From the NCBI GenBank assembly GCA_973895155.1, contig OZ316893.1:18383836-18447835 (forward strand): DNA of 64,000 nt, written 5' to 3'. The notes beneath the pieces are model-generated. The model searched no databases and was not told the DNA's origin. It worked only from the letters and a program-made list of their open reading frames with translations. This DNA comes from Marsupella aquatica. Its lineage: Eukaryota > Plantae > Marchantiophyta. A program made the translations under genes and the position numbers. Positions 7,440 through 49,816 of this stretch are shown here, piece by piece; position 1 is the first letter of the stretch; the number at the start of each line of letters is the position of its first letter.

Positions 7440-9005
7440 ATGCGCGTTGCTTTTTGAATATCGCCTCCCTATAATTTATTCGCAGTCTTTGCTTGTTGCT
7501 TCGCAATGTCTACTTCCAAAACTTCTCATCGTTTTCCTTACATGGCTTTGGCTATTTCATTCTTCTCATTTAGTTTACTCCTCCTTGATCATCTCAAGTT
7601 CTTTTCCCAGTTTCTAGTCTTCGTTTCCACCCGGGTTTAGCTGTCTTCCTCTCCACGGATTCACGCCCCTTTTAATTCTTTGTCAGCATTCCTCTTACTT
7701 CCATCACCCTTTGTTCTTATGCCTTGACTAATCCTTTCCACGCAGCACCAAGTTTGCCTTTCAAAAACCCTCCTTTTCAACCTTCAGCTTCCCAATTTAT
7801 CTTTCTCGGGATCTTTCTCTTCCAAAAGAAACACTTGTTCTTACCTACTAAGCACATCAAAGAAAACTTTTTTTGCCATAGCCCTTATGCTCACTGGTTT
7901 CACAGAAATAAGTTCACCACAACCACCATGTTCCCACAGTTTTATTAACTTAAATCGGTCCTCAGCATCACCTTCGCCTCAACTTTTCCCTACCTTGTCC
8001 TCATCCACCATCGACTGAATTTTCACTCATTCAACCTCAAATTGCGCGACCTCTCCCCATACTCCTTGTTCTCTCAAAAATCTTACTTTCTTGAAGTTTA
8101 AATTCTCCATTCTCAATGTTCATTGGTCACCATCCCAGATCCCTGCCTCTTTGCTGCGCTCACTAATTTTCCCTGCCTTCACCATAGCTCCTCCTTGATT
8201 ACTATAGAAAAATCCTCCACAGCTCCTCTCTGATCATTTGAGAAAAACCTTCCTTCAGCTTCCACGTTCTGCCGCTCACGCCCTTGTCTCCTTCTCTTCC
8301 CAAAATTCCTTTCCAGTTCTCTGATTTTTGACTTAACCCGCCAGAGCGCCACTGCTGTTTACAATCAATTCCCCGTCTTCGGTTGAATCACTCCCCTTTT
8401 CTTATGAGCTCTCAAGCGCGCTCTCCACTTCTCTTTGTCTTCTCCTTGCCTCTGCCTCAAGTTTGAGAAAATGTTCAGCTTTAGTCCAGATTCCTGCATC
8501 TCATGAAAAATCTTAACTACTACCATAATGTTCTCTTGTTTGCCATGATTGAAACTAGCATCTGCGCCCATATCCTTGCACAATGGTCACTACGTTCGGC
8601 TTCCTTCTCGCTAAATGCTTCCCAGGGCTTACTGCTCTGCTCTGGCAACTCCTTCCCTCAATTCTCATATCGCCTGAAGCCTGCCAGTGCGCCACTCCCA
8701 TTGACTTCTCTTCCCTCGAAGATCACTCTAATGTCCCTCTCCTAACAAACAACTGTCTGTCCTTATGAATTAATTTGAATCCTCCAAGCTACCACATGTC
8801 GCAACCTCAATAATTGTCTTAAATTCTTTAAACCTAAGCTTCAATTTTCACTCTTTATTCCTCTTTTGTCATACTAACCTTCCACTTAAACTCAGTTTTG
8901 TTTCTTCCCTTTCACAACCAGAGATACATCCCAAGCTGAACTAAAAGTAGGTCGTCATGTTCCGGCACACTCCACTTCAATCGTCAAATATTTTCCCCGA
9001 TGACA
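7440..9005. repeat. Family B pyrimidine-skewed dispersed repeat (possible LTR remnant), copy B1; left boundary uncertain
   Basis: Ends TCGTCAAATATTTTCCCCGATGAC, as at 52461-52484. 8780-8870 matches the reverse complement of about 63725-63815. Truncates the A3 transposase frame at 9005. Confidence 0.55.
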
Positions 9006-10968
9006 ACGGTGGTATTTCTCCAGTTTGGGTCCTGTGTTGCATCTCCACAACTTTGTTCTTCACCATCATCTGATATATTAATAACTTCACGAGGGAGGGG
9101 AGGTCTAAGGCAATTGGGATTGTCTTCATTGTCAAGAAAGTCAGAAGGTCCACCAATATCAGAAGCACCGCTAAAGTTACTAAATTTGGTGTAAAGATTT
9201 CTTCTTTTCAGACTAGACAGCGACGCCACTGTGCGCAATATCTTATCATGTTGATGAGAATCATTTTCATGAATAGAAGCAGAAGCACTACCCTTCCTTT
9301 TTCCTGACGTTGCTCTAAGATCTCCATGTAAAGGCACTGTTCTATAGAACTCATATTTTCCAGAGGATTCAAATAGTAGATTGGATGCCTTCTCATAGGC
9401 ATCCAACGACCCCATTGTATCTGCATTTCTATAGGCCAGCTCAAATATTGTAGGACCATTGCCACGATGACACCCTTCCAAGTATGCAGTGAACGCTACA
9501 ATCTGTCTAGCTGCTCGATTCTGGTCAACTTCACAGGCTTCCATCAAACCAATTTTCTTCTTCGGCTGGCAGGAACGCATTGATGCATGAGAAGATTCAG
9601 CTCCCGCACAGTTTGGCATCAAAGCAAACTCCTTTGCAGTTTGCGTCTGGAAAATAAACAGAGTTAACACTTGTATTCACTAGCGATGTCTAGCTTGAGG
9701 CATACTCATGTTTGAGTCAGTGACAGAAAAACCTTTACGAAAAGAAGTCGAGAAAGAAGTATTATGGCTAGCGATCTTGCTAGCTTTAATGCATCATAGA
9801 TAATGGCCCGGTACTTACCACCCGAATAAAGTTACCCCATTGTCTCCATCGCACAACCCACCATGAAATCCACCCTTGGAGTGATTTAAGCTTGGAAGGG
9901 TGATCATTCCCTTCTTTCCACCATTTCTAATGTCGTCGGCTATACAATATGCTTCAACGTATGTTGGAGCAATTCTTAACTTCTCCCACATCTTATAGTG
10001 CTCCGCATGACATCCCTCCTTGATTCCCTCCAAAGCGTGTCTTCTGAGGGATTGAGAGAAATGGAAAGCATCACTATGCTCTTTCATTGGATTTCTGACA
10101 CCCCCAAAAACTACCCTTTGGACAGCAATCCAGCCAGCCTCCGCATTGTCTGCTATGAATCCTCCAATAATGGGATTATTCACTTCATTCTCGGATGCAA
10201 CATCTACTGGCATTAACCTCCACGCAGTCTCAAGCGACTCAGTGTCTTTGGCTCTCAACTCACAAGTGAAAATTGTACACATAGCCCGGTAATTATGGTC
10301 ATACACGTGTGCGCTGAAGGTCAACCATCCAGTAGTGATACAATGCATCACGTCAAAACTCACCCAAGAACCTTCCAAAACTCCTCCAGACTCCATGCTC
10401 CTCAAAATTTCCACGCTAGATCCAGGATCATTTGTACTCATTTTGAATACATGCACTCAATCATTTTTGTTTCCTTGACCAGGAAACAAGTACCTTTGCA
10501 CGACAGGGAAATTATTATGTGATTGCATTTCACGAAGTGAGTCAAGTTCTCCTTTTTGGGGATTATCCATCTTCACGCTGCGAAGCATAACTTGGAACTT
10601 TGGAGTGGTTGAAACCACTCTGATCAAACTCCAAATTTCTTTCTGTTCTTCTCTTGACAACTGAGCCGATGATTCTAGATGCAATAGGGAGACTAGGTTC
10701 CCAATTGATTGGTTTCTTAGACGTGCAGGAGTTGAGACCGGATTCAACCTATGGACCCCTAAAACAACATCTTCCACTGTTTTTCTTGCAGAATGAGATT
10801 TTCCCTTCCAAATGGGGTGGTCATGGAATCCCATATGCACAGCCAATCTGGACATATGCATTGAAATGTGACTCTCCAAACCTGGCTTAGGGTATACATA
10901 CAATAGTTTTGCCAGACAATCTTGAATACGGAGAGGCCTCTCTTCACAGAAGCCACAGACGAGTCCGC
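9006..10968 (-). pseudogene. A3 transposase pseudogene, central part (GCM-like C-half, DDE core; intron about 9836-9650)
   Basis: HMSRLAVHMGFHDHP, WVSFDVMH, FIADNAEAGW, DAFHFSQ, AESSHASM; stop at 10457 and frameshifts. Confidence 0.82.
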
Positions 10969-17143: not shown

Positions 17144-17155
17144 GGTCCCGATCCA

Positions 17156-18226: not shown

Positions 18227-18534
18227 CACAACTAGATTTTGTTGCGTCGGATGCTAACAATACCTCCTCATAATCATCGTTAATATAATTAACAACTTCC
18301 ATGACTACGTTTATAACTCCATCCAACGTAACGGTGACGTCGGAGAAATCTAAGCGCTGATTGCCCCCATTTTAACATCGTTGGAAACACATTTAAAATT
18401 AATGTCTCTGGATGAGCTGTCCTAAACATCGTTTTGGTCGTCGTTCAATATTAACGACGTCAATGTTTATGTCGTGGAGGGAGCCGTTAAAGTGGTAACG
18501 TTGCTCTGTAGGACGTTCCAATTGAATCAAGCCA

Positions 18535-22800: not shown

Positions 22801-25140
22801 ACATAAAAACAAAAAAACGTCAGGTGGAAAGACATAAAGTGAGATGGACGACGTAAAGTAATCAATTACATAGTCATGTACGACGTTGTTTGAAAGAATG
22901 CAACATTAAAAGTTGGACTTTCTTGTTCTCACATTGCGTTGAGGAAAACATTACCTTTTCTGCAATCTTGTCTCCAATGGTGTCTGGTCGATACCGTGGA
23001 AGCCTACAGTGCTCCTCTGGGCAGTGAGTGTGATCCTTGTACACCCCTCTATACAAGATGCACCCACCTGGGCACATGTGGATAGTCTCTAAAGCCAATC
23101 CAATTGAGGCTAACAACTTCTTAGCCTCCCTCACACATCCAGGGAGAGTGTTTGGTTGGGGCAAGAGTTTGCCGTGGAACAATTGGAAGAGTGCATCTGT
23201 ATGGACATCCGAACCATTGAAAACTCCTTGAAAATTCAACATCAACAAAGTTGCACCCAACCTAGATTTGCAAAACCACAAACACCAGACTTTTTGCAGT
23301 TAGTCCAAGTAGCTAGATGGCATGCCTGGCACTACAACTTAGACTGCCCAATATTCACTGGATGAAATTCCAGAGTTGTGATAATTTTAGGACAACCTTA
23401 CCGTGAGGATGGAGATCCCTCAAATAGAGGTGTTCTGGCTTCAGTCTCCAAGTGATCCCAAGCTTCTTGATCCACTTCCATGATAGGGTGCTCGGCGTCA
23501 GGTGCATGAGGTCCAAAGTGAATGTCAACAAGGTGGGCAAAGGCATCTTCTTCAAGGATAGGGTCATCTCCCTCATCTCCCTCATCGTCAACATCATCAT
23601 CCAACTCTCCATTATATGCATCATGGTACTCCTCATCCTCATCGTCCATCTCATCATGGTCAAGGGGCTGACCCTTAGCATCCTCCTCGTCTGAGAAATG
23701 TAAGGTGGCACGTACGTGAAAGGCACGGGCTGATGTAGTCATCATTGATGGGTGAGGTGTGGGAGTAATATGTACACCATCCTACAGTTTTCAATATGCA
23801 ATGACAAATCACAATTAGAGAAAGGGTTTCCGTGATAAAGCTTATAGTGAAACATCAATAATGAAAAATGCAAGGGTCACCCCATAATGAATATGTCACG
23901 TACACATGTAAACATCAATGCCAATCATAATCTACGAGAATCTCTTGCATCTCGCCGCCGAATACTTGGGCCCATAGAATGGAAACAACTGAGGCAAATC
24001 ATCGGGTGCACAACCGGTAGGGACCACGATATCCACAAGAGCAAATACTCCAAGTCCTACATGAGTCCCCAATGTGGAGGGGAGGATGACCCATGGGCGG
24101 TCCCAAACTATAATAGGCTCCCAAAGCGGTAGGGAGTCCAAACTGGGCTGGGAAGGAGTCCTTTAAGATGTCCAAGGCTCTCCCTCGCAACTGTCTCGGT
24201 GCCCGGGACACCGATGTATCAAGAAAAGGGCATCGGGGTGGAACAATCCTAGGTGGACGGGACTCAATCGATCAGGGTCTAGTGGTCACCACTACTCCCC
24301 TCTCAATAGGGTGCATCCTAAACACTCTCCTCCTCCTCCAAAATACACAGTCTATCTCCCTCAATGTGGCTGGAAAATCGGATGGATGGACGAGTGGTGC
24401 GAGTGCATGATATGCAATGTCTCTCAAGCGGTCCACAAGCAAAGATCGCACTACAACAGGAATCTGTTCCACATGTTCACCAAAACAAGTTCAGAATATG
24501 ACAATCAAAAAACAATTCAAGGAAGGAGATGTTATCATAATTGCAATACCCAACAAAATTGTATTACCTCTCGGGTCGGGGGGGTGTAACGACCATGGAT
24601 CCCTAAATGGCTAAGGACAGTGGTCCTCTCGTGTAAGACAACACCCTTGCATCGTCTGCAAGGGGAAGGCATCTTGCGAAACTGGCCCAATCCCCTGAAG
24701 AGCAGCCACGGCCTCTCCAAATCCATCAGCATGATGGGGGCTCCGGCCTCTCCTACCCTCAGAATGATGTCTGCATCGACGACGCCTAGATCGGTGACGC
24801 CTAGATCGATCATACATGTCTGGTGAGTAATCTCTCTCCCGGTCCGACAGGTCGTCCCTCCCCCTATGATGATGGTCATCTCTGCGTCGGGTGTAAGTAC
24901 CCCCACCATGGTCCTCATAGGATGAGTCATCCCTCCTCCTCCCTCCCTCGTCATCCCTCCTCCTCCGCCGCTCGTCATTGCTCCTATAGCCTGATGAAGC
25001 TGAACTCCCCCTATGCCGATGATGGTGTCTATGTCGGTGAGAACTACCGCCATGCTCATCGTCATCATCACACGAGTCATCCCTTTGCCTATCCGACTCA
25101 TCATACGTCCCCCTATGATGATGATGGTATCTGTGCCGAT
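19812..25140 (-). pseudogene. CACTA TnpD-like transposase (transposase-associated Cys/His motif, Tnp2/Transposase_21, DUF4218/DUF4216-like), multi-exon; first 16 codons at 35793-35746
   Basis: PCRRCKG...HLGIHG, IHMCPGGCILY, DSPTWKHID...PRNVRLGL..DGVNP, LLDPMHIEVNV, GLKSHDYH, FDMQLHLLCHL...WMYWVER, YCGTILDI. Confidence 0.88.
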
Positions 25141-25740
25141 GGGTATAGCGACCGAGACAACAAACAGGCAAACAACAAATACTTTTCCTGTTTGCCTTAT
25201 GCTGTTACCAGGAAAAAACATCTTGTACCAGGGGAAAGAACACACAATCAGGAGTTTAGAATTGTTTAAGTTGGAGTTAGTCCATTGCGGTGAGGGAGGA
25301 TACCTTGTCATGAATCGCTGAACCACATAATAATTGAACCTCATATCCCAACACAAACAAGGGCGAGCATACATAAAAATGTCAAGGAATGCGCACAAAA
25401 ATGGTAGGTCCCACCACAATCGGCAACAAAATATATGAAAATAATACAAAATTAACGCAGCCCAAAACTTTATGGTATGATATGGTCCAAAATAAAAGCG
25501 AACAACGTCTTGACTAGCGCCTGGCGCTATCTTATCGGTATTTAAGGAAACAAATAGTTGGTGTTGAGAACATCAAGCACAACACGATGATATTTAACGG
25601 TGTAGCCTAAACGAAAAAATTATCAGCGCCTGGCGCTAACAAAACATGACGCAACATAAATAACACTATACCGTTGACATACGACAAAATCAATATAACC
25701 GTTTGGACCAATAATACAACCTACATCATCATGATTCATG

Positions 25741-28700
25741 CTATAAACCATGAGCATTTTTCCTCTCTAATATGAGCCGAACCTCTCCAACAGTGAGAAT
25801 TGGTTGGCTGGTCAATGTAGATTCCTCAACGTCTAGTTTGAAAACGGTAAGGAAAATCCAATACAAATGTTTGCAAGGCATATATGGATGTTTCCGAGAA
25901 TGCTGCCGGTAGAAATCCTCACACGAGCAAGTGGGGAAAATGCAAATTTGAACAAAGTAACAATTTGGCGTCCGCATATTTTCGTGCATTTGCACCTTAA
26001 ACTGCTTTCCCCATGCATTCCCAATCGCAACATCCCACTCTCCCTGAATGGACATCGTCTCTTTTTTAGCAGAAGCAATTATGTTCATGTGACCCTGGGT
26101 AAGATTTGACCGAGGAACCGTATTCCTCCAATTCCGGCTTCGGAGACGAACATTGGGTTTGAGAAGATTCACATGTTCTGGAAAGATATTGACATTGATT
26201 CGAAGATCAAAATCTGACGGGGGTCTAGTTGTACGTTCATTTCCGTGCACTAGGGAGATTCTGTTGTCAAGAAGATATTGCAACTCGTCTTCCAAAACAT
26301 TTGTCCCTTTCAAAATGGGAAGAACATTAGGGAAAGGGGGCAGGTTCAATACACCTCGACGCGGGCGGCTTCTGTAACATGTATTGTTTGGGCAAAACCA
26401 AGTCATTTCGGTTATGGGTTCCCCCTGAAAATGCGTTGTCCTTTGACAACAACGCCGATAACACCATGTGGTGAGGGAAATCCAACTCTTTTCACGCGAT
26501 TGCGACACTCGTCTCTTTCAGAATTACGGGAAAATGATCCGTTGCACTGAGGACCAGCACCAAATTTTGAAGTTTGACGTAATTGCCATGCAGTTGGAGC
26601 AACCTCGGTCTCACGGACAGGACACTCTTGTAACGGTTGCTGAAGCACGGAGGGAGCAGTCTGGGGAAGCCTCGTTGAACGCATTCGGTCTCGAGTAGGA
26701 GGGGTATTGAAATCGACATCTTCTCCACCGCCCAAAATGTCACTTCCAGACAGATTAACAACAGGATTAACTTGAGGCGTGGGGCCAGGGATAGCATCAA
26801 ACGTCGTGCGATTAAGATTCTTCCTTTTCATCGATCTAGTATTGGGCGAGGTGACAAGGATTTTATCATGCCTATGGGAGTCTTGTGGCGAGATATTCCC
26901 AGATGCATGTCCTTTCCTCTTCAAAGATTTGGTGACAACGTCTCCATTGAGAGGTGCACGTCTCTCCAAGTCAAACTTGGCAGCGTTGGATAGTAGCATA
27001 TTCATTGCATCTTCATACAACTTGGGGGAGCCTGCCTGGTCCGCTGATCGGAAAGCGAGTTCCCAAATTGTGGGACCTTTTCCTCTATGCAACCCTTTCC
27101 GATACGCAGTGTAAGCAGCAACCTGAGAAATAGCTCGATTTTGGTCCATTTCACATGCCTCAAAGAGGCCAACCTTTTTCTTCATTACCCGTGCTTTCAT
27201 ACCTGTGTGCACCGACTCTGATCCTGTACAATTAGGAATCTTAGCCCCTTCTTCGACACTCTTGTTCTGCAATTACATAGAATAAATTGTCTGTTATGCA
27301 ACAAGAAAACACTAGCGTCGGGCGCTAGTGAAGTGGAGTATGTACCTAGAAGTAAAAACTGGCACTGTCCATTAAGGGACAACTTATTGCGTCGTATTGT
27401 GTCATATGACAGTTTGAATAAATGATAGCGCCAGGCGCTAGTATTAAAGGATGCTATGGTATTGTAATATTTGAATATGGATACAAACATTTTGTAATGA
27501 GAATATAGCACAGCAATACCTAAAGAGCGGAAAGCAAAGTAAACTAACTTACCAAACGAATAAAATTTCCCCATTGCCTCCACCTGACGACCCACCATGA
27601 AATCCAACTCTGGAGCATCCGGAGCTTCCCCGGACACAGTTACCCGACTGCCACCACAAATCAATCTCCCTTGAAATTCTGTAAGCCTCTACAAACATGG
27701 GGGCATTTCGCATCTTATCCCAAAGCCTACGATGCTCTGCTTGACTCTCTTCAATCACTCCTTCAACTGAATGGCGATGGAAGGCTTGGTAGAAATGGAA
27801 TGCGTCAGTTTGCTCACGCTCTGGGTTTGGATGCCCTCCAAAAAAGACATTTTGGACTGCCAGCCAACCAGCTTGAGCATTGTCCGCCATAATCCATGAA
27901 TAATCGGATTTTCTAATCCATTCTCCTTGGACACCTCAATCATTAGTCTCCAAGCCTTCTCGAACGACTCTCTATCCTTTGCTTTTAGTTCGCAGGTAAA
28001 TAAGGTACACAGAGCGCGATAGTTGTGATCGTAAATATGCGCACTAAAAGTAACCCAGTCTTTTGTGAGTCGTTTCATCACATCAAAACTTACCCAAGCA
28101 CCTTCGAGACTTCCACCAGGTTGCATTTGTCTCAAAAGATCGACGCCTGATCCATGGCCGACCGAAGTCAGCTTGAATATGTGAGGACGGTCTTCTTGAG
28201 ATCCTTGACCTAGCTGGTAGGAGGTACCTTTGGAGGAATGGCATGTTGATATTTCTTTGATACCGAACAAGAAAATCAAGTTCACCTCGACCTTTCTGGT
28301 CCTATCTAACACTACGAAAGAGGGACGCAAACTTCTGGGGTGTGGAAACTACCATGAGCGACTCAAATATCTCTGTTTCTTCAATATCTTGAATATCTTC
28401 CACACTTTCACACAGGACTTTACAAAGGACCCTGTCGCCACATTTTTTACACCAGCAGGGGTGAAAATTGGATTTCCTTCCAATTTCTTTTTGATAACCT
28501 CCTCAACAATCTTCTCTGCGCTCCGAGAAAACACCTTTCTTGAAGGATGGTTGTGGATCCCCATATGAATTGCCAAGCGGGACATGTGAGTACAGGTTTC
28601 TGAGTCAACTAGAACCTGAGGGTACATGTAAAATAACCTTGCTGGACAGGATTGGACACAAAATGGAACTTGATCACAAAATTGGCAAACAACTCCACCT

Positions 28701-29557
28701 TCGTCAATGAAGGAGCCAACACGATGTTGCCCGCCAAGTTTGGGGGTTCCACCCCACGCCTTCTGGTTCCTCCTTTTCTTCCATCGAAAATAGTCGCAAG
28801 TATTATTCCTACACTCAATGGAACCAATACACATTACTTTACCAAATTCCCAATATTTCTTGGGATGAACATTAGCTGATGTAGGAAATATTCTGGTCCA
28901 GATGTAGCAATCCTTTGACCGGTCCATGTCGCGCAGACGTGACCCCTTTGAAAGAGCTCCCGCAGGAGGCAACTTGAATACAATATTTCCATTGTATTTC
29001 TTTGGCAAACAGCCGACTTGTTCATGGCAGAAGTCCCCAGCCGTGATGAACCTCGAGATTTCATTGGAACCAGTTGACTTGAGAATGGTATCCATTGCAC
29101 TTCTCCGATACACAATGGAATTTTTGGTAAAAACTCCTGTAACCTCTTGTTTAATAGGGGTAACCTCCTATTTAACAATTGTGTGAGGGGGTTTAGCACT
29201 ACGCTCAGGCAAACCAGAAGGTCCATCATCGTCGCTATCTGAAAGCAAGACAACATCAACAAAGGGTTTGGATGAAGATGGGAGATCAGATGCGACTGGT
29301 TTTCGAATGACAATAGAATACCGAATTCTTGCATTCAGGTGCCAAAAACGAATCCCATCATCAACATCAAAAGAAGCAGTGAAATTAGAGGTTTCATCGC
29401 CGTTTCCCTCCAAAATGTCCTCAATGTCGTTCAAATCCAAACCAAAGCGCCCACAGAGATAATTCTCACTAACTTGCTTGTATACGTCATTGGCCGACAA
29501 TGGAATGGATACAAGGTCACCGGTAGACGGACGCGTTAGAACGATTGACCTCGACAT
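25741..29557 (-). pseudogene. A2 transposase gene (GCM-like Zn domain, Mutator-type DDE core, Cys-rich domain, SWIM); intron about 27550-27268; several lesions
   Basis: DCYIWTR...KVMCIGSIECRNNTC...CQFC...CPAR...HMGIHNHP, WVSFDVMKR, MADNAQAGW, DAFHFYQ, SESVH, CSCEDF...PCKHLYW. Confidence 0.85.
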
Positions 29558-30525
29558 TGTAAGATCATCCAACCCAAAAACACTTAGTTCACAATAATGA
29601 ATGACGTCTTCGAATGCACACAATGGTATTCATAGTGAATAATCCGTTTGTCAGAGCCGTTAGAATACGACAGAATCACTACCGGTCGAAAGCACATCTG
29701 ACACAATAAATGTTTTTTGTCGTTATGTCAACGACATTTACACTAATGAGCCTAAGATGTCAGTTTCCGAAGAGCATAATCATGTTTATTAAATCATCTT
29801 AATTGAGTAGCGCCGGGCACTACTCAAACATCCTCACTCCAACATGGACCCAAAATGGTGCAATATATGTTTAGCGCCAGGCGCTACTCAAACCCACACC
29901 CTAAATTGTGGTATTAAACTGGAATATTTTATCCGGGGTTTCAGAATAGATCCTAATGTTTGTAGCTATTTTCCAAATATTATCTAAAATTTTACCAAAA
30001 TGTGCCCATTTAATATTAGCGTCGGGCGCTAATCTAGAACGGTAATCATGATATTCATTTAAGGAAAAATATTCAAAAATTGTATTCATTTTATTTTTTA
30101 TTTTATACTTCAGGGTCAATGTTGTCCTAACTTAGGGAAAATTTAGGGTTTAAATATTGATCGTTTTGGGTAGCGTCGGGCGCTACTATTGACCAATATC
30201 AGATTTGACCTAGGAATATAGATTAAAATCACCAAACTATTCTTTAACGGTCATATTCAACGGTAACTTTAGGTCCCGTAACGTTGAAGATATGCCAACG
30301 GTATTCGAACAACTAATCCAGAATTGACAAGTGGCGCTCAGGAGAATGTCGTAAATAGATATCAATGTAGCGAGGGGATAGTTTAGAGATGATACTCTCC
30401 CCACCTCCCTTGTCCACGGTATTTAGGTTCCGTTTCGGAGGTTCTTCGTGCAAGAATTCTCTAGAAGAAGTACGGTACGAATGAGGTACTCATCACGATC
30501 GTTAAGCACTTCGTGTATGCGAAAC

Positions 30526-33500
30526 ATGGACCCTCTCCCCACCACCTCGCATGGGTATAGTGCTAACGGGCAGAGAGAGCAGATCCATTCCCAGACATCC
30601 GAGTGCTCATTTTCTGGATCTGTTTATAGTCGTCGTGTGACACGGTCTACAGCATCCCAAGATCCCGAAACAGTCGCGGTAGTCACATTTCCAAAGATCA
30701 GGAGAGCGAAGATGGACGATCTCGACACATACGCTGTGGAAGATCGAGGAGAAATGTCACTGACGATGTCCGACATTATCTCCAAGCACGTTATGGTGTT
30801 TGGCAAGGATTTTTGAGGGCACGACAAAGACCCCCCAAGGATTCTAATGTGCCGCTTGGTTCACATGGAAGTTGTCCGCAACTTATAGAAGGGAAGTCCT
30901 TCAATTGAAAAGTTGAAGGACTCTTTTCGTAGCACAGGATACAACTCAAAAATCGGAATGTTGTTCTATGTCTAGCCGACAGATTCGAATGGGAATGTCC
31001 AGACGTGTACTCCAGAAATTCGAGCGACCTGGGACCCGGTGTGGGTGGCCGAGAACGAGAAGTTTGAAGCTGAATGTGCGGCCGATCCAGACTTCATGGT
31101 GTTACAAGATAAGATGTTTTATGTTTTTGACGGTAACCATCGACTTTACGCATGGTCGATCGTTACGAAAGAAAATCCGGAAGATAGCAAGTATCACCCG
31201 CGTGTGCAATGTACTATCTTCAAGGGTGAAAAGGGATCTTTGATTGAGATTGAGGCGGCTATGCATACTGTGAACCAATAAGTCTCTCTTTGAATTTCAC
31301 CTATCCTTATCTTTTATAGTGTAGTTTTTACTAGCGCCTGGCACTATTGACTGACAAATTCTTCTGTAGACTTGGACAGGCCGTGGTGGAACCTTCCTGG
31401 ATACTTGATGCAGACTGAATTAAGAGGATTTTGTCCAACGATCTAGAATACTACAAATCAATCATCGATGGGGCAAACTTCAAGAAGTTTGGGCAGGTGA
31501 TGCAGAAGACTCAAAAAGGATCGTGGTATTCCAAGAAAATGCCTCAAGAAGCACTTCTGTATATCTTATGCGAGAATAAGATTAAATCCTATTCTCGACA
31601 ATTCAAGATGGACATGGAATCGGCTACCGCTCAGGGAAATCCTTGGTCTCAGGAAGAGACATCCAAACGACATGCCGTCATGATGAAAGAAGCAACGAAG
31701 GATTGGGCAATCAAGGTCTCAAAGATCACTCCCTTGTTGAGTCCTGAGTTTGAAGACTTCATGACAACCTGTGTTGAGATGTATCCGATGACAGAGGTGA
31801 ACAAACGCGAGAAGAAACCGGATGCGGTTGTCTATACCATGGATCGTGCCAGGTTATTTATAGCTGTCTCCGCCCTCGACCCCAAATTGAGGAGCACTTT
31901 GTTAGTAGCGCATTGCACGCCAAAGCTCAGGAAGCAGTTCTTTCATCCGCAAAGTGTTAGCGATGACCCTGTGAAGCAGTGGTGCCACACTTGGCAAACT
32001 TGGAATAGCGTGGAGGGAATTGCCATTGGTATGCTGCAGACTGCCCTCCAGCAAATCAGTGAAATAATTCCTTCCAATCGATTGGAGGAATGGAAGTGTG
32101 AGTCTTATGATTCACTCGTTGAAATAGTGTGCAATGATTTCAAAAAATTTGGGGATGCAGTGAAAGGTAAGTTTTTCAATACGATGTGGATGTCCAAGTA
32201 CCCGGACAAGGAAGACTACACACTCAAGAATCAAAAGCGAGCGAAACGATATGTCTATCGTTTCTTCATGCACATGGAGATTGTGAAGCCTAACTATTTT
32301 CGGGATTACCCAACTGCTTTCCAGAATTGGGTCATCTGCGCAGATGGAGACATTTTGGCCAAACTGTATTTGATGTATCCCGTTGAGGGTATACTTCCAC
32401 CGAGGAAATTGTCCGAGTGGGAGAGAATTCACTGCCCTTGGTATCTTGACACCGACAGATGGGATTCTCCTTTTGACGACACTGAGAATGATGCTTTCCA
32501 TAAACTGTCTAAATCCCAAGTTCCTAGACAATTTGTCTCCAACATGAAGCAAGGAATTGAGGGGGACGTCAACTCGTTGACGACTGAGTTGCAAAAAAAA
32601 TGCGAAACCACAGTGGTTCATGTTGATCGAAGCCGAAAACCAAGAGCCAAAGCCAAGGCAGATGCCCCTGTGGCAAGTGCTAGTGCCAAGTCTGCAAAAA
32701 AATGTAAGCTACACCTCCTTCTTCCGACTTCCTTATTTGGTAGCGCCTGGCGCTATCATGTGTCGTAAGTTTAATGTGTCTTATTTACCAAAATTAATGT
32801 GGGTGTTTGGTCAGCGCCTGGCGCTAACACTCTTTCTGTGCTTGACACCGTTTTTTGGTAGGTGGTCGAAAATCTGATGCCGCCACGGATGACACAAAAG
32901 TCGATGCAACACCAGAAGTCTCTGAGGCCAACACTGGTGCCAATCCAGACCCCATCACCCCCGTTGAGAAGGGGAAGGTTATAGTTCCTGTGGATGCTAC
33001 AAGCACAAAGAAGAAGAAGAAAAGGACCATCGATGCCTGGGAATCATCGCGAGATAATGCTTCTGGGGCCGGTATCCAACGGGATGTGGGGACTTTCAAG
33101 ACCAAACTCGGAAGACACTGTATGGTCGAATCAAGCTTGGCAGAATTCATTGATAGTGCATTTAGTAAGGAAGAGAAGCCAAATTGAGTCTCAGATGCTG
33201 AGAAGTGGAGTAAGGATTTGATCAAATCGGGGTGTAGAGATAAAGGAATCACTCGAGGTGGGAAGGAACGATCATTTGGGGTGAATGCGGGTTTCATCTA
33301 TCTGACCGTCGGGTCCCGAAATGGAATGTCACAGATCACACAGCAGCCAAATCATTTTTTCGGGCGATGGACCCTTTCCTTTCCGATGACGGCATGCTCG
33401 CTATCTTATACTCGGATGACCACGATCAGATTTCCCAGGTCATTTCTGCATGTCATCAATCCAAGAAGTTCATGTGCATCAATACGCACAATGTTTTCAT

Positions 33501-34651
33501 GTCTGTCCCAATGTACAGATCCAAGACAGATGTCCAGGTAAATGTTCTCTCTGAGTAGAGCTATACTAGCGCCCGACGCTACTCTTTCTTTCTTAGGAGG
33601 TCTTCTGTCATGAATAAGAGATTTTTAAAATCCAGTTGGTTTGTCAACTTTTGCAGGTCTTCACTCTTAGACTAGATATATTTTGTCGAGTTTCTTTTAA
33701 AGGAAAGGTCCCAAAGGATCCAAGATTCAAGCCGTTATCTAGCGCTGAAGATCCTTCAATCTCAAACCTTATTGGGCTACGATCTTTGAAGGAAGATCAT
33801 TGTCCTGAACTCCATTTTATTGGGAATTCCCGACTACCGGTTGGTTTTATGCAAACTGTCCTTGAACTCTTTACGATACCTAAGGATATTGTAATTGATT
33901 GGACCGTCGGCTCAGGTAGTACGTTCATTGCTGGGGATTACTCGGGCCATTTTGTCATCGGGTTAGAAAATCATCGGGAGTTTGTTGAGACCGCTTCGAG
34001 GATTTTTTTGGATCTCATTTCTCCCAAACCTTTGGAGACACAACCTCCCCCTCCTCAAATAATCGGACAAAAAAAGAAAGATAGACTTAGATCTGTCCTC
34101 AACTTTGATTCAGATGAAGATGATGGGACGCCAGAAGATGATGTTCCCGAGGATGTCAATGATGGCGGGAAAGAGGAAACCCGACATGATGGGTCAACGG
34201 AGGACAGCGAAGAGTCTTCCAAGTAATTTTCGTCTCTCGTAAGCTCCTTTATCCTTTCAATTGTTGGCTAACCATCAATTCCACCGGTTCTATTGGTTAA
34301 GTACTTACTTCCTCTTTCTCTTCCGCTTCTCTTTTGAGCAGGTCAGAATGGAACCAAAGAAAACAGTTTCAACTCCGGAGGAAAGTGGCTCGAAATGTAA
34401 TCATCACTCCCGAGAAGCCATTTGTGTTGCCATCATACGCTGAGAACGTCGCGAGGAAGGTAGAGAAATTTAGAATGCTCTGCTGGGAAACAAAAGGACT
34501 TAGGCTTCTTAGGGGAGTAGACAGGAAGTTCATGAGGAACCCCTACGTAGATGATGTTTCTAGAAGCAAGTATATTGATGATGAGGCAGAGTCGACCGAC
34601 AGATCTCATAGCTCCCAGAATGAGAGCTCAGAATATGACACTGAAGGGTAG
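30526..34651 (+). pseudogene. A2 second gene: ParB/Srx-like domain, helical region, amino-methyltransferase-like domain and acidic C-terminal exon; introns about 31280-31369, 32704-32861, 33538-33656, 34223-34340
   Basis: FYVFDGNHRLYAW; PFLSDDGMLAIL; RLPVGFMQTVLELFTIPKDIVIDWTVGSGSTFIAG..SGHFVIGLE. Collinear homologue at 45380-49816. Confidence 0.75.
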
Positions 34652-37274
34652 CAATTTTCTCCTCTATCAGGTCAAACTTCCTCCCAACTGTACGAGTATG
34701 ACCTTGGTTTTTGTTAGCGCCAGGCGCTATTGAATTTATTAAATATGAATTGAGTTTGAGGGAGGTTGCCCCTTCCATTCAATGGTTAATGTGGTCTTTA
34801 GTAACGTCCTTTGTGTGGGTTCCTCTCCTTGTTTAACTAGCGCCCGACACTCCCCAAAAAACACGTTGGAAGTTTCCGTTTGATATTTGTCGTTTCCGCC
34901 CTAGTGTCATTTGGCTTTCAGTCGGCGACTGGTATCATCAAGAGGACCAATAACGGGAAATCCAAGCCCCTTATAAACATACTATTGTTTCTTTCAAAGT
35001 CCATTGCTCTCATTTTTCTCCTTCTCGATTCCATGGAAGGCTAGTGTATCGACAGCCCACGAGAGCATATGTCAACTTCCGAGTAGATGGTTTCCGTCAA
35101 GATCTAGATCGTCAGGACACTGGGATTGATGATGACTGTCACTCTTCGAGCTAGGACATTGTACGAGGAAGCACCCACCGGGAGTATTAGTGCCTGGCGC
35201 TAGTTACAATTGTACTGGCAACTTTAGTGTTCCTATGTAGCAATATTTGTACATCGAGGACAATATGTTTCACTTAAATAAAAAAGCTCGGGTTTCTTTT
35301 CTTTCAATTTCCCGTTAGAAGTTATGACTCAGATACCTTGGTTAAGTCCTACTTCTGTGCTTTGATATTGAACTTAGACTATTAGTAATGTTTGGTTTCT
35401 ACTTGGATCTCAGCCTGAACATCAATCCTACGTTCTCGTGATTTTCTCCACAAAGCATTAGAAGCGGCCGGCTCTAGTATTTGGCATGTTGGGGCGATTA
35501 ATGTTTCATTATTTTGGGTTTGAACGCCCGGCGCTAGTATTCGGCATGATGCGTTTGTGATTGTTTTGCCTGTAGACTCTCGGCGCTAGTATTTGGCATC
35601 GCATAATTATCAGTATTTTAGGAACGGATTTTTTTAAGTTTGCCACAATACCAGGAGAAATGTGCTCCCAAAATAGGAAATTTTGCTGTTACCAGTTCCT
35701 GTTATAGTTTTCTGTTTGTTGTTTACTGCCTTTTGTAAACACCTCGTGCCGATGATGCCTGCCCCCATCATGGTTCGATGCATAGGTTGCCATGTCCCCT
35801 GTGATCAAATTTACAAAGGCCCCCACAACATATTAAACCCCAAGCATAAACGTATCCCGCTATGTTAACCAAAATAACGTCCATCCACACGACGTTCTTC
35901 TAAAATTAACGTCATTTTTTAGGTTGTGGGGAGGTTGCCGAATTTATTTTACGTCATAATGTACGACGTACTTAATAAGTTAACGTCGTTCGGTATGACA
36001 TAATTATGTGTAATGTCGCCACTAAACCCTACACCCCTGGTTAACATTGTGATTAATGACGTTAAATTAGGGTAACGGCGGGTCTCCAAGGTTCGTGGGC
36101 TACGGTTGTTTTCCTTTAACAAAACATCGGGAAGTGACTCGAATGTGACTCACATTCAACATTCAACACTTCCCCTCTCCCCCTCTCAACCTCCTATCTT
36201 AACAGTGAATGACTATGGCTCATCCAGACTATCTCCCTTCCAGTGGAGATTTTGATGCAGACTTGGTGGCTATGGATGATCCAGGGGAGTTAGAAAAGGT
36301 GCGTAAAGCTATGCAATCAACACATTCGCTGATACATGCTTTCAACCAGAGTTGGAAGTTCTTGGGAGGAAAAGGAAGCAAGGAGTCTCAGTTTCTGGAG
36401 TACCTGGAAAATATAGAGGCCAATGCTCCTGCCCTCGATGATTATGTGGAAACTGAGAATGCAATGCTCTTGGGGGAGGATGGGGGGCCTTTGATCGATG
36501 CTCTCAACTCCTTCCCGTCCCTACTAGATGATGGGTGGGACGATCCTGCCTTCAATGGAATGCAGCCTGATTCTCAGGCACCTAGTGGGACCCCAATCAA
36601 GAGCGTGGTCAGGGTAGCACATGACAGATTCCAGCCTGATCAGGATCGGGACTCTCGCAGGCGGAGGAGGCATCGTGATAGAACACACAAACAGCAATAG
36701 CAGCCTTGATGAGAGAAGACGGAAGGGGAAAGGGAAGGAGTATAGAGATGCAGATCCACACAGTAGAGGTACATACAAAAGAAGAAGAACAGAGGGAGAT
36801 GCAAGGGCAGACAGAAGAGAGAGGTACTCACCTCAACGTGAACATCACTCCCACAAGAAGCGACAACCTTCTCTTGTGCGACCTGTAACTACTGCTGTGA
36901 GTCGAGACAAACTCCCAACCATCACCTTGGATGCGTTTGATGCTAGGCCGGATGTTCTGGATGAGAAGGCCCTCACAAATTGAGTGCAGACGTGTTGTGC
37001 CAAGCACTGTCCTGGTTGGACAACTTGGAAGGATCTCGCGCAGAACCCAAAGAAGTTTCAGCTCCTCCTGAACAATGTGCAAGCTGGGTTTAGGAACGGC
37101 CGTGAAATAGACTACAGGCACATTAGACAGAAGATCGTAGGCTACCTGCAGATCGGAGGTTTAGATGGAGAAACAAGGTTCGAAAAATGAGATGCCCAAG
37201 GACAGAGCAATACCTGAAACCAGAAGGAATGAGCAACGCCGACTTCAAGTTGATCGTGCCTGAGTTGGAAGCAG

Positions 37275-44389: not shown

Positions 44390-44835
44390 CCGCCCTCACT
44401 CACTTGCTCTCCAAGACAAAAGATGTCAGTCAGCAACCCTTTCCCTCTGAAAGCGCAGTCATTTTTCACTCCAATATGTTTCAACTTCCGGCAACCCAAA
44501 TTATGGCATTCAAGAATGCCAGCACAACGGACTTTCGACACAGCCGGGCAATGAAACCTTGGCTTCAAATTTGCAGATGTAGTGACGAGTCTAGTCCAAG
44601 GATAGCCGTCCTTCTCTTGATCCATATCTTGGAGACCTCCTCCGCGCCTGACCCCCTCGACTAGAGGAAGTTCAAAAACAACGTTACCATTGTATGTTGA
44701 TGGCAGACTCGAAACCTGACATTCATTCCATTGATTCCCTCTTCTAAATTGTGCAAGTTCACTTGCTCCACTGATATTGAGAAAAGCGTCATAAGCACTC
44801 GTCCGATACACTGTGGTCATGCTATCCCCAGTCAA
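44390..44835 (-). pseudogene. A3 transposase, GCM-like N-half
   Basis: LPSTYNGNVVFELP...DGYPWTRLVTTSAN...KVRCAGILECHNLGC aligns with A2 28349-29113. Confidence 0.82.
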
Positions 44836-45379
44836 TGGTACAAATTACGGTTGACACCTGTACCGTTTTGTATGGATAAGATTATCCCTGTCGTGAAGGT
44901 TGTTCTTCGGGTTTTCCAAAATGTACAACTAGTGGTCTCTGCCAGGAGATTTATGTTATTCCTTCCATTGTACTGTCGATCAGTGTCGATATTCACTATC
45001 GTAACTGTGTAAGGCTTCGTCGGGAGTTCCTAACAGTTTGTATGGCTGTCCTATTTCTCCTAAAGGCGGTGCGGTGTGGACGTTTTTCACGCGTGCAACT
45101 GCTGCAGTCTCCGGACACGACCACTCTTCTTCGAAGGGGTTTATTTCATGGAGTCATCGTTGTCTCCAGAGAGTATTTCTTTGAGAGGATCATTTTAGTT
45201 GAGGGAGTCGACAAGGAGAGAAACCAGGCCAATAGCTAACAAGAAGGCGCTTGTAGTGGGCTTGAGACTCCTAGGCAACACAAGATGGTGACGGCGGTAG
45301 ATGTTGTGGCTCCTGTGTTTGATCTGAGCGCTTCAAAACCTTACACGGTTGTCATAAACCGTCATCTTCACTCGTTCAG

Positions 45380-48300
45380 AGTGAATGAGTTTGGATTTGC
45401 ATTGGCTCCCCCTTGAATTCCTCTTTGCCGGATGAGGAACATGCAGATTGTTTGGTCTTTGCAGAAGGATTCCACTGCAATAGACACATTTGAAGTCCAA
45501 GTTCAGGACGCAGGGTTACATCGAATTGGATGCGCCTCGCTTTTACGTTCAGGTGACAAACGAGGATGGAGAAATCCAGATGTGTACCAATGCCATCTGC
45601 AAAACTTGGGATGATATTTGGGTGTTGCAGAACAAGGAGTTTGAACGCGAATGTGATTCTCATGTTTCTTCCCAGATCCTCAAGGACAAAATGTTCTATG
45701 TTTTTGATGGAAACCACCGATTGTATTCGTGGGGCCAACTGGCGAAAGAGCATCCGGACAATATTAAGTACCAATCCTTGAGTTGTCTGCAAGATTTTCA
45801 AGGGTGAAAAAAACTCTTTTGTTCAGATCGAGTCGGCAATGCACGCATTGAACAGGTGCGAGTTCTCAGGATAATATCTTTCTGAAATTCCTTTTTTACC
45901 ATATCACTTTCAGCTAGCGATCTTGCTAACATGAGAATGTTGTGGCAAGTTAACTCAATGTCATGTAGAGAACTCCTGGGTTTTGGAGGCTGAACGCGTC
46001 CAGAAGATTGTGAACAATGACTTGTCCATTTACAAGGATATCATCAACGCTGAGAATTACAAACTTTTCCAGTAGAAGATGGCAAACGTGCGGAAGGCGG
46101 CCGGGTATTCGAAGAACACGACACTGGATGCCTGCACTTATATTCTATCCACTGCTAACATTGCATCGCAGACCGAGGACCTGAAGAAGAAATTTTATCT
46201 TAAGGAAGCTCAAGGCGAGCCCCTCTCTAAGGCCTCACAAGACTTAGCAATGCGTGAGATGATGAAAGAACAACTCGTTGATTGGAATGTGAAAGTTCCA
46301 AAGATCGGTCCATTACTAAATCCAGAGTTTGGAGACTTTTTCAAGAAATGTGTCAAAATGCATAACTACTGCAAGAATGAGAGAAAGGAGGCCCAGAGAA
46401 CAGATGACAAAGGAAGGGGAAATGTTTCTTGTGGTCTTGATCGAGCTCGATTGTTCACTAATGTGACCTCCCCCACAGCTCCGATGTACACTCCTAGAGG
46501 CACGGTGTCGTCCTAAGCTTCGGAATAAATTCTTTCATCCAGGTCAATTCTCAGATAGTGAGACTAAGCTTTGGCTTCATCGTTGGGCAGTGTGGGAGCA
46601 AGTTGAGTCAATTGCGTCTTCCCTCATGTCCAAAATTGTTGTTGAGGTTATGCCTACTGTCCCTGAGTCGAGGATCCTTACCTCTTTAGAGAAGATAAAA
46701 GCTTCGCTAATCCTTGACATTGAGGAGGATTTTGAGGATTTTCAAACTCGTGTGAAGACTCGTTTCTTCAAGCAGATTTGGCCCCCCAAGACAGGAGAGA
46801 AGATCGAGATTGCATTGTTTCAAAGGAGAGCAAAGAGATACACATATCAATTTTTTGTAGATAGAGAAGTAGCAGACAAATTCTACTGGTGGTCCTACCC
46901 AGCTTGCTTCTCCCCATGGATAGTAGGAGTTAAAGAGGACCCTACAGGTGATAAGTTTGGGGAATATTGTATGTTTCCTTGCGAGGGAAGTGATGCTCCA
47001 AGGAGATTGAGCGAGTGGGAGGTTCTTCACTGTCCATGGTATTTGGACTTGGACAAATGGTCTGTAACCTTTGACACTGCAGAGAAAGCAGCTCTTCACA
47101 TGATCAATCGGGGATTCCTTCCGGAATCTTACATCTCGGAGTCCAGATTGGCACCCATTGACGCTGAAGTTGGTGGTTGCGAGGCAATGGAAAAGGCTTT
47201 TCTTGGTGTAGCTGCCATAGTGGATAGGAGTCAAGCTCAAAAGCCAAGAAAAGGAGCATTGAAGGACACATCCAAAGATGGGTCCCAGATATTGGGAAAA
47301 CCAAGTAAGTCTGTCAATATTTTGTTACTTTTTATTTTCAAGTCTGTATGTGTGTCGAATATATAGACACTAATGGCTTTTGTTTCACAGAGAGGAGGAA
47401 GGGTGCGGCTTTTGAGAGTTTGAAGAGTGGAGCAGATGATGGTGAGGAACCTCAGTCCCTAGATGTCAAAGTTACAACAGAGAGCGCAGTGGATTTAGGA
47501 AGTATAAAGCGTTTGAAACGGAAGCGAAATATCCAGATTCTTTCAGATTGGACGATGAAGAAGTTTCAGTTGCTCAAGGTGTTGCTCGGATGTGTGGTTT
47601 GAAGATGGATGGGCAGAGACATTTCCTCGCTTGCAGCAATTTGACCGACACTGCAAACTCAATCAACGTAAATAAAGTGAGGCCATCTTGGATGGGAGAT
47701 GGAGATGGAGATCGATGGATTACTGGGATGTCGAAGCGTGGAGTGCCCGAACCCTATCGTAATTAATGGAAAGCCTTATGCTGGGATTGAATCACATTTG
47801 GGATTCATTTCTCTTCCAACTGGGCATAGAACACGCGTTACAGACAAAGAGGTCCCATCTTGGAATGTTTGGAGCGAGAAACTGCCGTATTATTTTTCTA
47901 GAGTGATGAGACCAATGCTTTCAGACGACGGATATGTTGTTGTGCTGCACAGCTCGGATTTCAATCACATGAGGCGAATATTTACTGCAGTCGAGCAAAA
48001 AAACAAATTCAAACAAGCATGTTCAGCTATATATTGTTTTGTTGTCTACCCCATTATGGAGAGCAGATATGGATATCGAGGTAATTATCCCTTCAACTTT
48101 TGGAGATGTTTTATACTAGCAATGTCGCTAACAAAATGTTAATTTTCCACTCCTCAACATGATCAGTTTACCTATTATTTTTCCATTTTTTTACTCAGTT
48201 AATGCTAGCGAGCTCGCTAACAAAGTTTTCAATATTTCTAAAGGATTATGGTTCTTTGTTCAGGTGTGCACTCTCATATTAGACATTTTTTGTCATGTGG

Positions 48301-49816
48301 AATTTAATGCTAAGATTCCTAAAGATCCAGCGTATGTTCCTTTGATGTCTTCGGAAGATTGTCGTGCGAGAGTGCATGGTTATCATCGCCCATCACCATG
48401 CCCTGTGCACGCCCGCTAGGATATTATGGTAGTTTAGGTTCATCATTTAGAGGCCATATAGGCAAGCTATAATAGATATGCTTGGTGTTCTCTAAGCAAG
48501 CATTCTCCTCTTAGTAGCACTTTGGGCAATGTTCTTGTAGCAAACCCTGGTTATTCTCAAAGCAAATAGTCTTTGTTAGGAGCACTCCAGAGCCAACATA
48601 CTTAGATTGCTCATTGCACATTCACTTCAGTTCTTCTTATGTCTTAGCTTTAGCATTGCAAGCACTTGGCTATGGCAGCACACTCCATGGCACCTCCACA
48701 CATTTGAGGATTGGCTGTGACTCTTTAGATGCTCCCAGCACATCATGGCATGCTGCTGGTTTTCTTATGTACTACTCACTCTACATGCTACATACGTATT
48801 ACTATACAGGGGTCCACTTTCATGCCCCAACATTTCTTCATCTTGGTGTTAATGGACAACCATGTATCATCTTTCTGGTTTTCTATTTTGTTGGGTTACT
48901 TGGATGCATATGATACATGTCTCGATATCTTATGCTACCAACTCTATATGTCACGACAAGATGCAAGACATAAGTCAATGTTGAGTGTTTGTTACCCTAA
49001 GACTGACCCATGTCCAGCAGCGGCTGTTGCTGGATCAAAAAGGATTTCAATTGGGTTCATGCAAGTCGTGATGGAATTCCTCACAAAGCCCAAAGACATA
49101 GTCCTTGACTGGACTGTGTGTGACGGGAGCTCGTTTTTTGCTAGAGAATACCCCGGGAGGTTTGTTGTCGGTGTTGAGAACAGGGACATTCTCCATTCCT
49201 GTGCTCAAAAAGGTTTAAACAGTGTTCTTGAGAGGCACTCGAGCAAGGCAAAGATGATTAAGGATCAGGCAGCCAAGGGTAATCAAGACGCTGGGTCGGA
49301 TGATGAGTTCACAATTCCAGGAGATGAACAGGCTGGGCCTTCAAGCGAGAAAGACAAATTCAACCTGGAGTAAAGTACTCGGCCTATTCTAATGTCAAAC
49401 TCCCTATTTGGTTTCTGTTGTTTTCTTCATTTTGTTGCTCTTTGTCAACTGATGCCGGTGGTTGCTTCAGTGATAGGAGGGTGGATTGGTTTTCTGAGGA
49501 GAGATTTCGTCTTTGGAAGGAAGTCCAGGAATCCATTGTGGTTACTCTCGAGAAGCCTTTTACTCTTTCGTGCTATGCTGAGACATCGGCAAAGCAGGTT
49601 GATGAAGCTCCTGTGGTCTTGACTTGGGAGGCGAAAGGTCTTCGATCAATGAGAGGTGCTCAAAGATATCTGGATTTTTCAAGGTTTATCAACAATGAGG
49701 CGGGGACAGTCCGTCAATATTTAGATGAGTCTACCGAGTCCACGGAGAGGGAGACCAGTAGCGATCCTAGTAGTAGTGACATATCTGATGATTCAGAGGA
49801 TGAAGTTTATGACTGA
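45380..49816 (+). pseudogene. A3 second gene (ParB-like + methyltransferase-like), disrupted
   Basis: MFYVFDGNHRLYSW, RRLSEWEVLHCPWYLD, RPMLSDDGYVVVL, RISIGFMQVVMEFLTKPKDIVLDWTVCDGSS..GRFVVGVE. Introns fall at equivalent positions to A2. Confidence 0.75.
48360..48958. mobile_element. Solo LTR (599 bp)
   Basis: TGTCGTG...CACGACA with 4-bp TSD AGAT. Removal restores SSED-ARHKSM. Confidence 0.88.

Follow-up and report, generated by a model that had tools for sequence, protein, structure and literature searches.

A decayed two-gene Mutator-like transposon in a liverwort, with lineage-specific palindromes in its non-coding DNA

The element and its transposase

The 64,000-nucleotide stretch of Marsupella aquatica contig OZ316893.1 analysed here (the window) contains, at positions 25141..35745, a decayed Mutator-like DNA transposon of 10.6 kb. 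It carries two divergent genes: a minus-strand transposase gene running from 29557 to 25741 with a single intron, and a plus-strand gene, here called gene 2, with five exons and four introns. A palindromic motif, TAGCGCCnGGCGCTA, is dispersed through its non-coding DNA. We compared this focal element with two related copies in the window, A1 and A3, with a metagenome contig, L001, and with homologues from the liverwort Riccia sorocarpa. The features of the focal element are listed below (TSD, target-site duplication; TIR, terminal inverted repeat; pLDDT, predicted local distance difference test).

25133..25140 (25141 if the next G is counted, 9 bp), no strand: left TSD, GTGCCGAT
25141..35745, no strand: focal non-TIR or degenerate-TIR Mutator-like element, decayed
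25141..25260, no strand: left end, with GGGTATA terminus and subterminal CTGTTACCAG (25202) and AACAGG repeats, candidate transposase sites
25515..35536, no strand: 17 TAGCGCCnGGCGCTA palindromes, at 25515, 25624, 27313, 27426, 29808, 29872, 30017, 30171, 31332, 32741, 32812, 33567, 34715, 34838, 35188, 35462 and 35522
25741..27266, minus: transposase exon 2, with a putative catalytic E (CTGSESVH), an extra Cys-rich domain and a C-terminal SWIM-like finger
27267..27552, minus: transposase intron, with the palindromes at 27313 and 27426
27553..29557, minus: transposase exon 1, with the N-terminal region, a GCM/WRKY-like Cys/His domain and the DDE core (FDV, MADNA, DxxH)
30600..31278, plus: gene 2 exon 1 (start approximate), with a ParB/Srx-like domain and DGNHR (GxxR); three stops
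31370..32703, plus: gene 2 exon 2, a helical domain of ~400 amino acids, with high pLDDT in a homologue and no clear known fold
32863..33537, plus: gene 2 exon 3, linker and N-terminal half of a beta-class methyltransferase-like domain
33658..34223, plus: gene 2 exon 4, methyltransferase motifs X, I and II (PF01555, 31.8 bits against a cutoff of 26.7) and an acidic tail
34342..34651, plus: gene 2 exon 5, a conserved C-terminal tail found also in A3 and the Riccia homologues
35626..35745, no strand: right end, with subterminal CTGTTACCAG at 35686
35746..35753 (35754 with the G), no strand: right TSD

The direct repeat GTGCCGAT(G), 8-9 bp long, lies on both flanks of the unit. A 9-mer match between the searched flank zones is weak by itself (chance ~0.09 by our own estimate), and we accepted the repeat as a TSD because three observations back it. 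When the element and one repeat copy are removed, the rejoined flanks form a single continuous open frame; the GGGTATA terminus is common to the focal left end and A1; and the 10-mer CTGTTACCAG is found within the last 120 bp at either focal end and likewise at the A1 end, while none of 3000 random window triples shared any 10-mer. The evidence for subterminal motifs is this shared-k-mer test only; motif-density patterns were picked after the ends had been viewed. No long TIR was found between the left and right ends (local score 31, shuffle mean 33). The repeat length, based on one insertion, falls within the 8-11 bp given for Mutator-like elements (MULEs) in PMC6446971.

Scanned with HMMER, the transposase showed no Pfam MULE domain. 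In the Atlas, all ten of the best named matches to the transposase core of a homologue, P0101, belonged to the MULE or ZSWIM RNaseH-like family or clan (scores 0.91-0.93), although one third of shuffled proteins likewise score 10/10. The D, D, DxxH and E motifs are conserved, with FDV, MADNA, DxxH and CTGSES kept across copies, as is the N-terminal Cys/His pattern, and the order of finger, DDE core and C-terminal SWIM-like finger agrees with the MULE architecture in PMC1702500. The transposase intron lies at an identical position in the focal element, A1, A3 and L001. None of 21 candidates from viral contigs carried the transposase. An original prediction, made from the letters of the window, had described a TSD-bounded 10.6-kb unit with two divergent intron-containing genes and a Mutator-like transposase; the repeat, the open empty site and the gene models bear out the first, and the Atlas matches, motifs and 8-9-bp TSD the second. 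Its label GCM/DDE/SWIM stands in part: the DDE core motifs are present, "GCM" describes a motif pattern with no match to a GCM profile, and the SWIM match (E=0.056) falls below the cutoff.

The focal element has accumulated seven in-frame stops, about six frameshifts and one broken splice donor. Both of its genes are pseudogenes, the transposase with two in-frame stops and about five frameshifts, gene 2 with five stops, one frameshifting deletion and a GT-to-AT donor. The related copies in the window, with coordinates assigned in this analysis (A1, 3444-7197; A3, 44390-~49800, its transposase being split), are as follows.

3444..7197, plus: A1, 3' part of the transposase, 52-77% amino acid identity by segment, synonymous sites near saturation
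8987..10968, minus: C-terminal half of the A3 transposase, with an intron palindrome at 9769
44390..49800, no strand: N-terminal half of the A3 transposase (minus) and gene 2 (plus), with TAGCGAnnTCGCTA at 45915, 48117 and 48206

The gene pair thus recurs in the diverged copy A3, where an element with long terminal repeats (LTRs) separates the transposase halves, and the transposase half recurs in A1, both as predicted. L001, the one match among 133 metagenome candidates, shows 48-62% identity with the focal transposase, depending on the segment. Between the focal element and A3, the proportion of nonsynonymous differences (pN) is far below that of synonymous differences (pS) in four of four transposase segments and in seven of seven gene 2 segments (pN 0.27-0.45 against pS 0.73-0.92); both genes were therefore selected through the long separation of these copies, and both are under purifying selection. 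One-off capture of gene 2 was considered and rejected, as the pair recurs in A3 and all segments are under purifying selection. With its Riccia homologues, gene 2 is a stable component, as originally proposed.

Two further observations concern A3. Its transposase has no recognisable SWIM end beyond ~9000, and its gene 2 contains an insertion (48360-48950) holding a 118-bp piece that is 95% identical, inverted, to 50181-50298.

The protein encoded by gene 2

Among 1.84 billion representatives, a HMMER scan with gene 2 exon 2 found 100 relatives (E<=0.001), and a word-indexed search of the same exon against proteins of 750-2140 amino acids gave none among 2045 candidates. Ten of the 30 relatives looked up had a named organism, eight of them Riccia sorocarpa and two Calypogeia fissa, all liverworts. 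The methyltransferase part gave 26 matches, 25 of them from R. sorocarpa, where they lie on eight contigs; the genome has eight chromosomes (PMC11735767), and the distribution is the pattern of a dispersed repeat. One Riccia homologue, P0104, is a single 1207-amino-acid gene with all three domains in the same order as in the window. Riccia homologues are currently annotated as "trimethylguanosine synthase" or as uncharacterised. Co-occurrence with the transposase outside the window, a check proposed with the original prediction, was found in one Riccia model, P0082, in which the transposase N-terminus is fused to gene 2 sequence; the fusion places both on the same strand, unlike the divergent layout of the focal element.

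The C-terminus of gene 2 matches PF01555 above its cutoff, and the motif order IV ... X-I-II is that of beta-class N6/N4 enzymes. The closest sequences are phage and bacterial adenine methyltransferases, and the closest solved sequences or folds are the beta-class adenine methyltransferases M1.HpyAVI, CcrM and M.BceJIV. With a low-confidence model of this part (pLDDT 47), Foldseek gave E 1e-4 to M.BceJIV and 4e-4 to CcrM, and VIA a best Z of 7.4 in a mix of methyltransferases and Alba/IF3-like folds. A search of prokaryote genomes for this part, which reaches close relatives only, found none among 42 candidates.

The catalytic motif is altered. Active amino-methyltransferases carry SPPY, DPPY or NPPY, and changing SPPY to APPA abolishes the activity of N4CMT (PMC8885841). 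Motif IV of focal gene 2 (exon 3) was lost through the frameshifting deletion. In an alignment of 27 rows, eight of them without the region, motif IV takes the form D[LM][PS][ST] in 17 rows from Riccia and SLPT in another two, A3 and P0133, and none of these 19 rows shows an aromatic fourth residue or a D/S/N-P-P-Y pattern. The loop that binds S-adenosylmethionine (SAM) is retained as DF/W-x-G-G/S-x-G, as is the beta-class order. Given the altered motif IV and the missing aromatic residue, gene 2 probably does not encode a normal methylase, and we regard this half as probably a conserved pseudo-enzyme. Identity with enzymes of the type of Marchantia MpDN4MT1, whose motif is TSPPY (preprint), was rejected on the catalytic motif, a comparison of motifs with no direct alignment.

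Gene 2 could instead encode an active amino-methyltransferase with an unusual loop, writing N6-methyladenine or N4-methylcytosine at or near the palindromes and thereby marking the element or blocking 5-methylcytosine. Consistent with activity are the retained order and SAM-loop, the purifying selection on the domain, the conservation of the altered motif IV itself and the nearest structures, M.BceJIV and CcrM. The core of the 15-mer palindrome holds CCWGG/CCSGG, and CCSGG is a target for N4C methylation (PMC8885841); a bacterial-type 4mC enzyme is in use in liverworts (preprint). The motif IV count, the loss of N4CMT activity on the SPPY-to-APPA change and the centre of the A3 palindrome, GAnnTC and not CCnGG, all speak against it, and we consider this reading quite improbable.

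For the N-terminal part, a ParB/Srx fold is a lead only. Its GxxR motif (DGNHR) is present in focal and A3 gene 2 and in eight of 139 collected proteins, and weak profile matches were obtained to a ParB-like PHROG (E=0.018) and to DGQHR (E=0.02). In the Atlas the domain (residues 150-335 of P0104, homologous to window positions 30740-31278) lies nearest to clusters bearing DUF3723 (score 0.96; 31-47% of members) and to an unnamed cluster that is mostly cnidarian; a ParB_N cluster (32% of members) scores 0.92. The DUF3723 and cnidarian links suggest that unrelated mobile elements of eukaryotes have a ParB-like module in common. Phage records gave no match to the ParB part, P0104 hitting none of 15. 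For the predicted ParB-like + methyltransferase-like protein, the second half is supported by PF01555 and the first stays at the level of a lead.

Between these parts, residues 330-580 of the homologue model are helical, with pLDDT mostly above 90. For the P0025 model, Foldseek gave nothing at E<=0.001 against PDB or BFVD, and the best VIA Z was 4.9; a missing structural match does not show a new fold. As regards a helix-turn-helix (HTH) DNA-binding domain after the ParB-like part, KorB residues 151-248 aligned with model residues 329-532, but the alignment (97 residues, rmsd 3.8, Z 4.0) ranked 41st and does not rise above noise. A profile whose 459 positions are mainly the helical part found nothing below E 2.3 among PDB sequences.

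Palindromes and their possible recognition by gene 2

At three mismatches or fewer TAGCGCCnGGCGCTA occurs 17 times in the focal element, 14 of them with at most one mismatch; shuffled versions average 0.085 matches, with a maximum of two across 200 shuffles. About 18 palindromes had been predicted, all non-coding: the count is 17, and the placement is as described, with none of the 17 in the exon models although exons make up 67% of the element (P ~6e-9). They lie in four of the five introns, in the intergenic region and in both 3' regions, often in pairs 64-154 bp apart. Within the window the motif is confined to family copies or to their immediate vicinity. A1 carries it at 4548, 4651, 6612 and 6704, at places matching the focal element, and the focal and A1 transposase introns both keep two 15-mers despite pS of 0.69-0.86, near saturation; once the motifs are removed, 58 of 200 shuffles score as high as the two introns do.

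The palindrome differs between lineages as variants of TAGCG-N4/5-CGCTA: TAGCGCCnGGCGCTA in the focal element and A1, TAGCGAnnTCGCTA in A3 and TAGCGCCGGCGCTA in L001. Their outer half-sites are common, and their centre and spacing differ. The introns of A3, which lacks the focal 15-mer, hold four TAGCGAnnTCGCTA sites (shuffle mean 0.1). At two mismatches or fewer none of 300 shuffles reached four; at three or fewer, 17 of 300 reached the count, which is not clearly above chance. L001 has three TAGCGCCGGCGCTA sites, in the same transposase intron. The palindromes are under selection and lineage-specific.

Two sites outside the elements are recorded here. A 15-mer at 7216-7230, a fifth palindrome associated with A1, lies 18 bp beyond the apparent A1 terminus at 7197; the true A1 end may be further out, or there may have been an insertion beside a family remnant. 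The sequence GGACTAGTGCCCTTGCTA, which resembles the family motif at three mismatches, occurs twice at 42240-42276, 23 bp apart, inside an LTR element, probably by chance.

Such sites might be self-perpetuating hairpin filler, or signals for RNA or host factors, unrelated to gene 2. The three 14-mer palindromes of L001 (1111-1298) continue perfectly for a further 8, 23 and 6 bp, which in the middle site gives a hairpin of ~60 bp, and it is because these sites extend into hairpins that filler stays a live explanation. Within-site complementarity of the first four flanking bases is borderline (P=0.033 for the focal sites, 0.056 for the 19 window sites), this being one of five flank spans tested. 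When eight flanking positions are taken, complementarity at the 19 window sites is not in excess (P=0.17); the flanks are not duplicated (best 19, null 99th percentile 19), no tandem arrays were found, and Rfam gave no match in 24000-37000. Moreover, the core sequence, beyond its symmetry, is kept across lineages, and the motif is confined to or adjoins family copies. We therefore hold filler to be quite unlikely. A tandem-repeat origin was rejected, the flanks being unrelated and arrays absent.

The best explanation, to which we assign a probability of about 0.5, would be recognition of the palindromes by gene 2 with an anti-silencing role, as in the VANDAL/VANC system. The gene 2 product, probably as a dimer, would bind the lineage-specific palindromes in the introns and intergenic DNA of its element, using the methyltransferase fold as a reader or scaffold and not as a writer; the transposase would take the subterminal CTGTTACCAG/AACAGG repeats. 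Once bound, the protein would counter host silencing and keep copies of its own element open and active in transcription. A two-fold symmetric site of 14-15 bp suits dimers of the ParB type or of beta-class methyltransferases, and gene 2, the only other product encoded by the element, has relatives among proteins whose targets are symmetric sites. VANC21 binds in introns, intergenic and terminal regions (PMC5735166), and we take the matching placement of the palindromes as support for a VANC-like role. The ratio of observed to expected CpG is 0.81 in the focal element against 0.10-0.60 in seven other transposable-element stretches, a weak hint. The self-recognition originally proposed is strengthened by the selected, lineage-specific, non-coding palindromes; marking by methylation, part of the same proposal, has become less likely with no aromatic residue in the 19 motif IV rows.

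Alternatively, the palindromes may be bound by the GCM/WRKY-like domain of the transposase, for self-activation or folding, leaving gene 2 another role such as target choice or end pairing. MULE transposases carry WRKY-GCM1 DNA-binding domains (PMC1702500), the AtMu1 transposase reportedly activates cognate copies (2026 preprint), and the motif variants follow the transposase lineage as well as gene 2. On the other hand, the focal ends bear a different repeated motif and the palindromes are missing from the terminal 200 bp at both of them. A symmetric site of 14-15 bp would also suit ParB-type or beta-class methyltransferase dimers. We find this possibility unlikely.

Speculatively, the ParB-like domain would act as a nucleoside-triphosphate (NTP) switch, loading at the palindrome and spreading from there in the manner of Shigella VirB, an antisilencer of the ParB type with a load-and-slide mode of action (PMC10770331). 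Fusions of ParB with N6/N4 methyltransferases are enriched in phages (PMC12704722), and such a phage-type fusion may have been co-opted as an NTP-gated clamp, with parS-like palindromes in introns and spreading against silencing, a fuller scheme that we consider doubtful. If true, a ParB/parS load-and-slide system would be at work in plant chromatin, its protein and site diverging together from family to family, and the ParB-like module would possibly be shared with the DUF3723 of fungal Starship elements. It would also offer anti-silencing a concrete spreading mechanism.

In a third arrangement, a ParB/parS-like bridge made of gene 2 and the palindromes would stand in for long TIRs, compacting or pairing the element for transposition and playing no part in silencing. 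The lack of a long TIR, the spread and often paired sites and the resemblance of the ParB-like domain to Starship DUF3723 agree with this; the ParB fold is at lead level only, and the description of non-TIR VANDALs in PMC6446971 has them autonomous with no system of this sort. Bridging appears very improbable.

Several observations weigh against recognition by gene 2 with an anti-silencing role. The ParB evidence lies below curated cutoffs, and the ParB-like part of the model is of low confidence (pLDDT 35-79). The AtMu1 preprint has a Mutator transposase itself do the activating. An L001 palindrome extends 23 bp on each side, hinting at a hairpin-making process, and the tandem arrays that VANDAL elements have are absent here. 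Four CpG-decay changes fall inside palindromes, and age is a confounder of the CpG hint (A1 0.68, A3 0.52/0.60, unrelated 51-64 kb 0.74). Gene 2 cannot be linked to the A1 and L001 motif variants because both copies are truncated, and co-occurrence of the genes comes from two lineages in one window plus the chimeric P0082, with no TSD-bounded unit encountered elsewhere.

In cis architecture this liverwort family appears to resemble VANDAL/VANC, with prokaryote-type parts. Like it, VANDAL elements are Mutator-like, lack long TIRs, carry an extra gene and place short family-specific motifs in non-coding DNA, whether intronic, intergenic or terminal (PMC5735166, PMC6446971). They differ in that the accessory protein here combines ParB-like, helical and methyltransferase-fold parts (VANC was not among any gene 2 matches, a direct comparison of the two not having been run); that the site here is a dispersed 14-15-bp palindrome with unrelated flanks, and there an 8-9-bp asymmetric motif with tandem repeats; and that VANC is from Arabidopsis, whereas the named hosts of the present family are liverworts. 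Fusions of a ParB-CTPase with an N6/N4 methyltransferase in phages likewise join a ParB-like and a PF01555 domain in one protein (PMC12704722), but gene 2 has the ~400-residue helical domain in between and an altered catalytic motif, contains introns and sits in a eukaryotic DNA transposon. VirB, KorB and BisD parallel gene 2 in having a ParB-like switch domain, a place on a mobile element and repeated sites in cis, and offer a precedent for anti-silencing (PMC10770331); gene 2, which shows no clear HTH, would act in a eukaryotic chromatin context.

Beta-class amino-methyltransferase folds of bacterial type are also found in eukaryotes in MpDN4MT1 of Marchantia, itself a liverwort, and in rotifer N4CMT; compared by motif only, those are active host enzymes with (T)SPPY, whereas gene 2 has D/S-L/M-P/S-T/S and is transposon-borne. 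DIRS/LTR retrotransposons carrying DAM bring a prokaryote-type amino-methyltransferase onto a eukaryotic transposon (bioRxiv 10.64898/2026.05.21.726589), but these are retrotransposons of the Dam class with the NPP triplet kept, and ParB, Riccia and Marchantia have no occurrence in the main text of that paper. Fungal Starships share with this family a conserved accessory gene of a mobile element, DUF3723 (Atlas 0.96); they use tyrosine recombinases (PMC9156397), and the DUF3723 link is an Atlas score with no alignment or E-value. Our literature searches, outside which lay supplements, Repbase, Dfam and subscription journals, found no description of the two-gene family, in keeping with the prediction that it was not a described plant family; the paper on Dam-carrying retrotransposons came nearest.

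The best-known case of anti-silencing encoded by an element is VANDAL/VANC of Arabidopsis, where the kilobase reach from short motifs is an open question. The three natural motif variants permit swap tests, and an intact 1207-amino-acid homologue in an assembled Riccia genome, together with tractable liverworts, makes the family testable. Even should the mechanism fail, there would remain a divergent MULE branch, missed by Pfam, whose accessory protein joins a helical domain not yet characterised to a conserved pseudo-methyltransferase.

Nested insertions around the element

The focal element sits within an LTR retroelement whose LTRs (10969-12325 and 43022-44389) are 96.6% identical; being nested inside, its insertion is presumably the younger. 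The immediate target is LTR-like sequence at 24585-25140 and 35754-~36150 that begins with TGTAAC after a G-run, and the frame that is open across the insertion site is repetitive and rich in Gly, Met and Ile. The enclosing retroelement is the one that splits A3 (nesting spans 8987-49800); it has a 4-bp TSD, CCGC, and an integrase at 12339-13895. Besides the focal element it contains a long interspersed element (LINE), a stretch of reverse transcriptase (RT) and RNase H (17344-18253), another RT (38988-40670) and a CACTA element (Transposase_21, DUF4218; ~19800-23800). Two LINE copies with apurinic endonuclease (APE) and RT, at 1-3443 and 14152-17596, are 99.65% identical, with an observed/expected CpG ratio of 0.10, and one of them truncates A1. 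A 255-bp LINE piece with a 29-bp duplication lies at 5931-6185.

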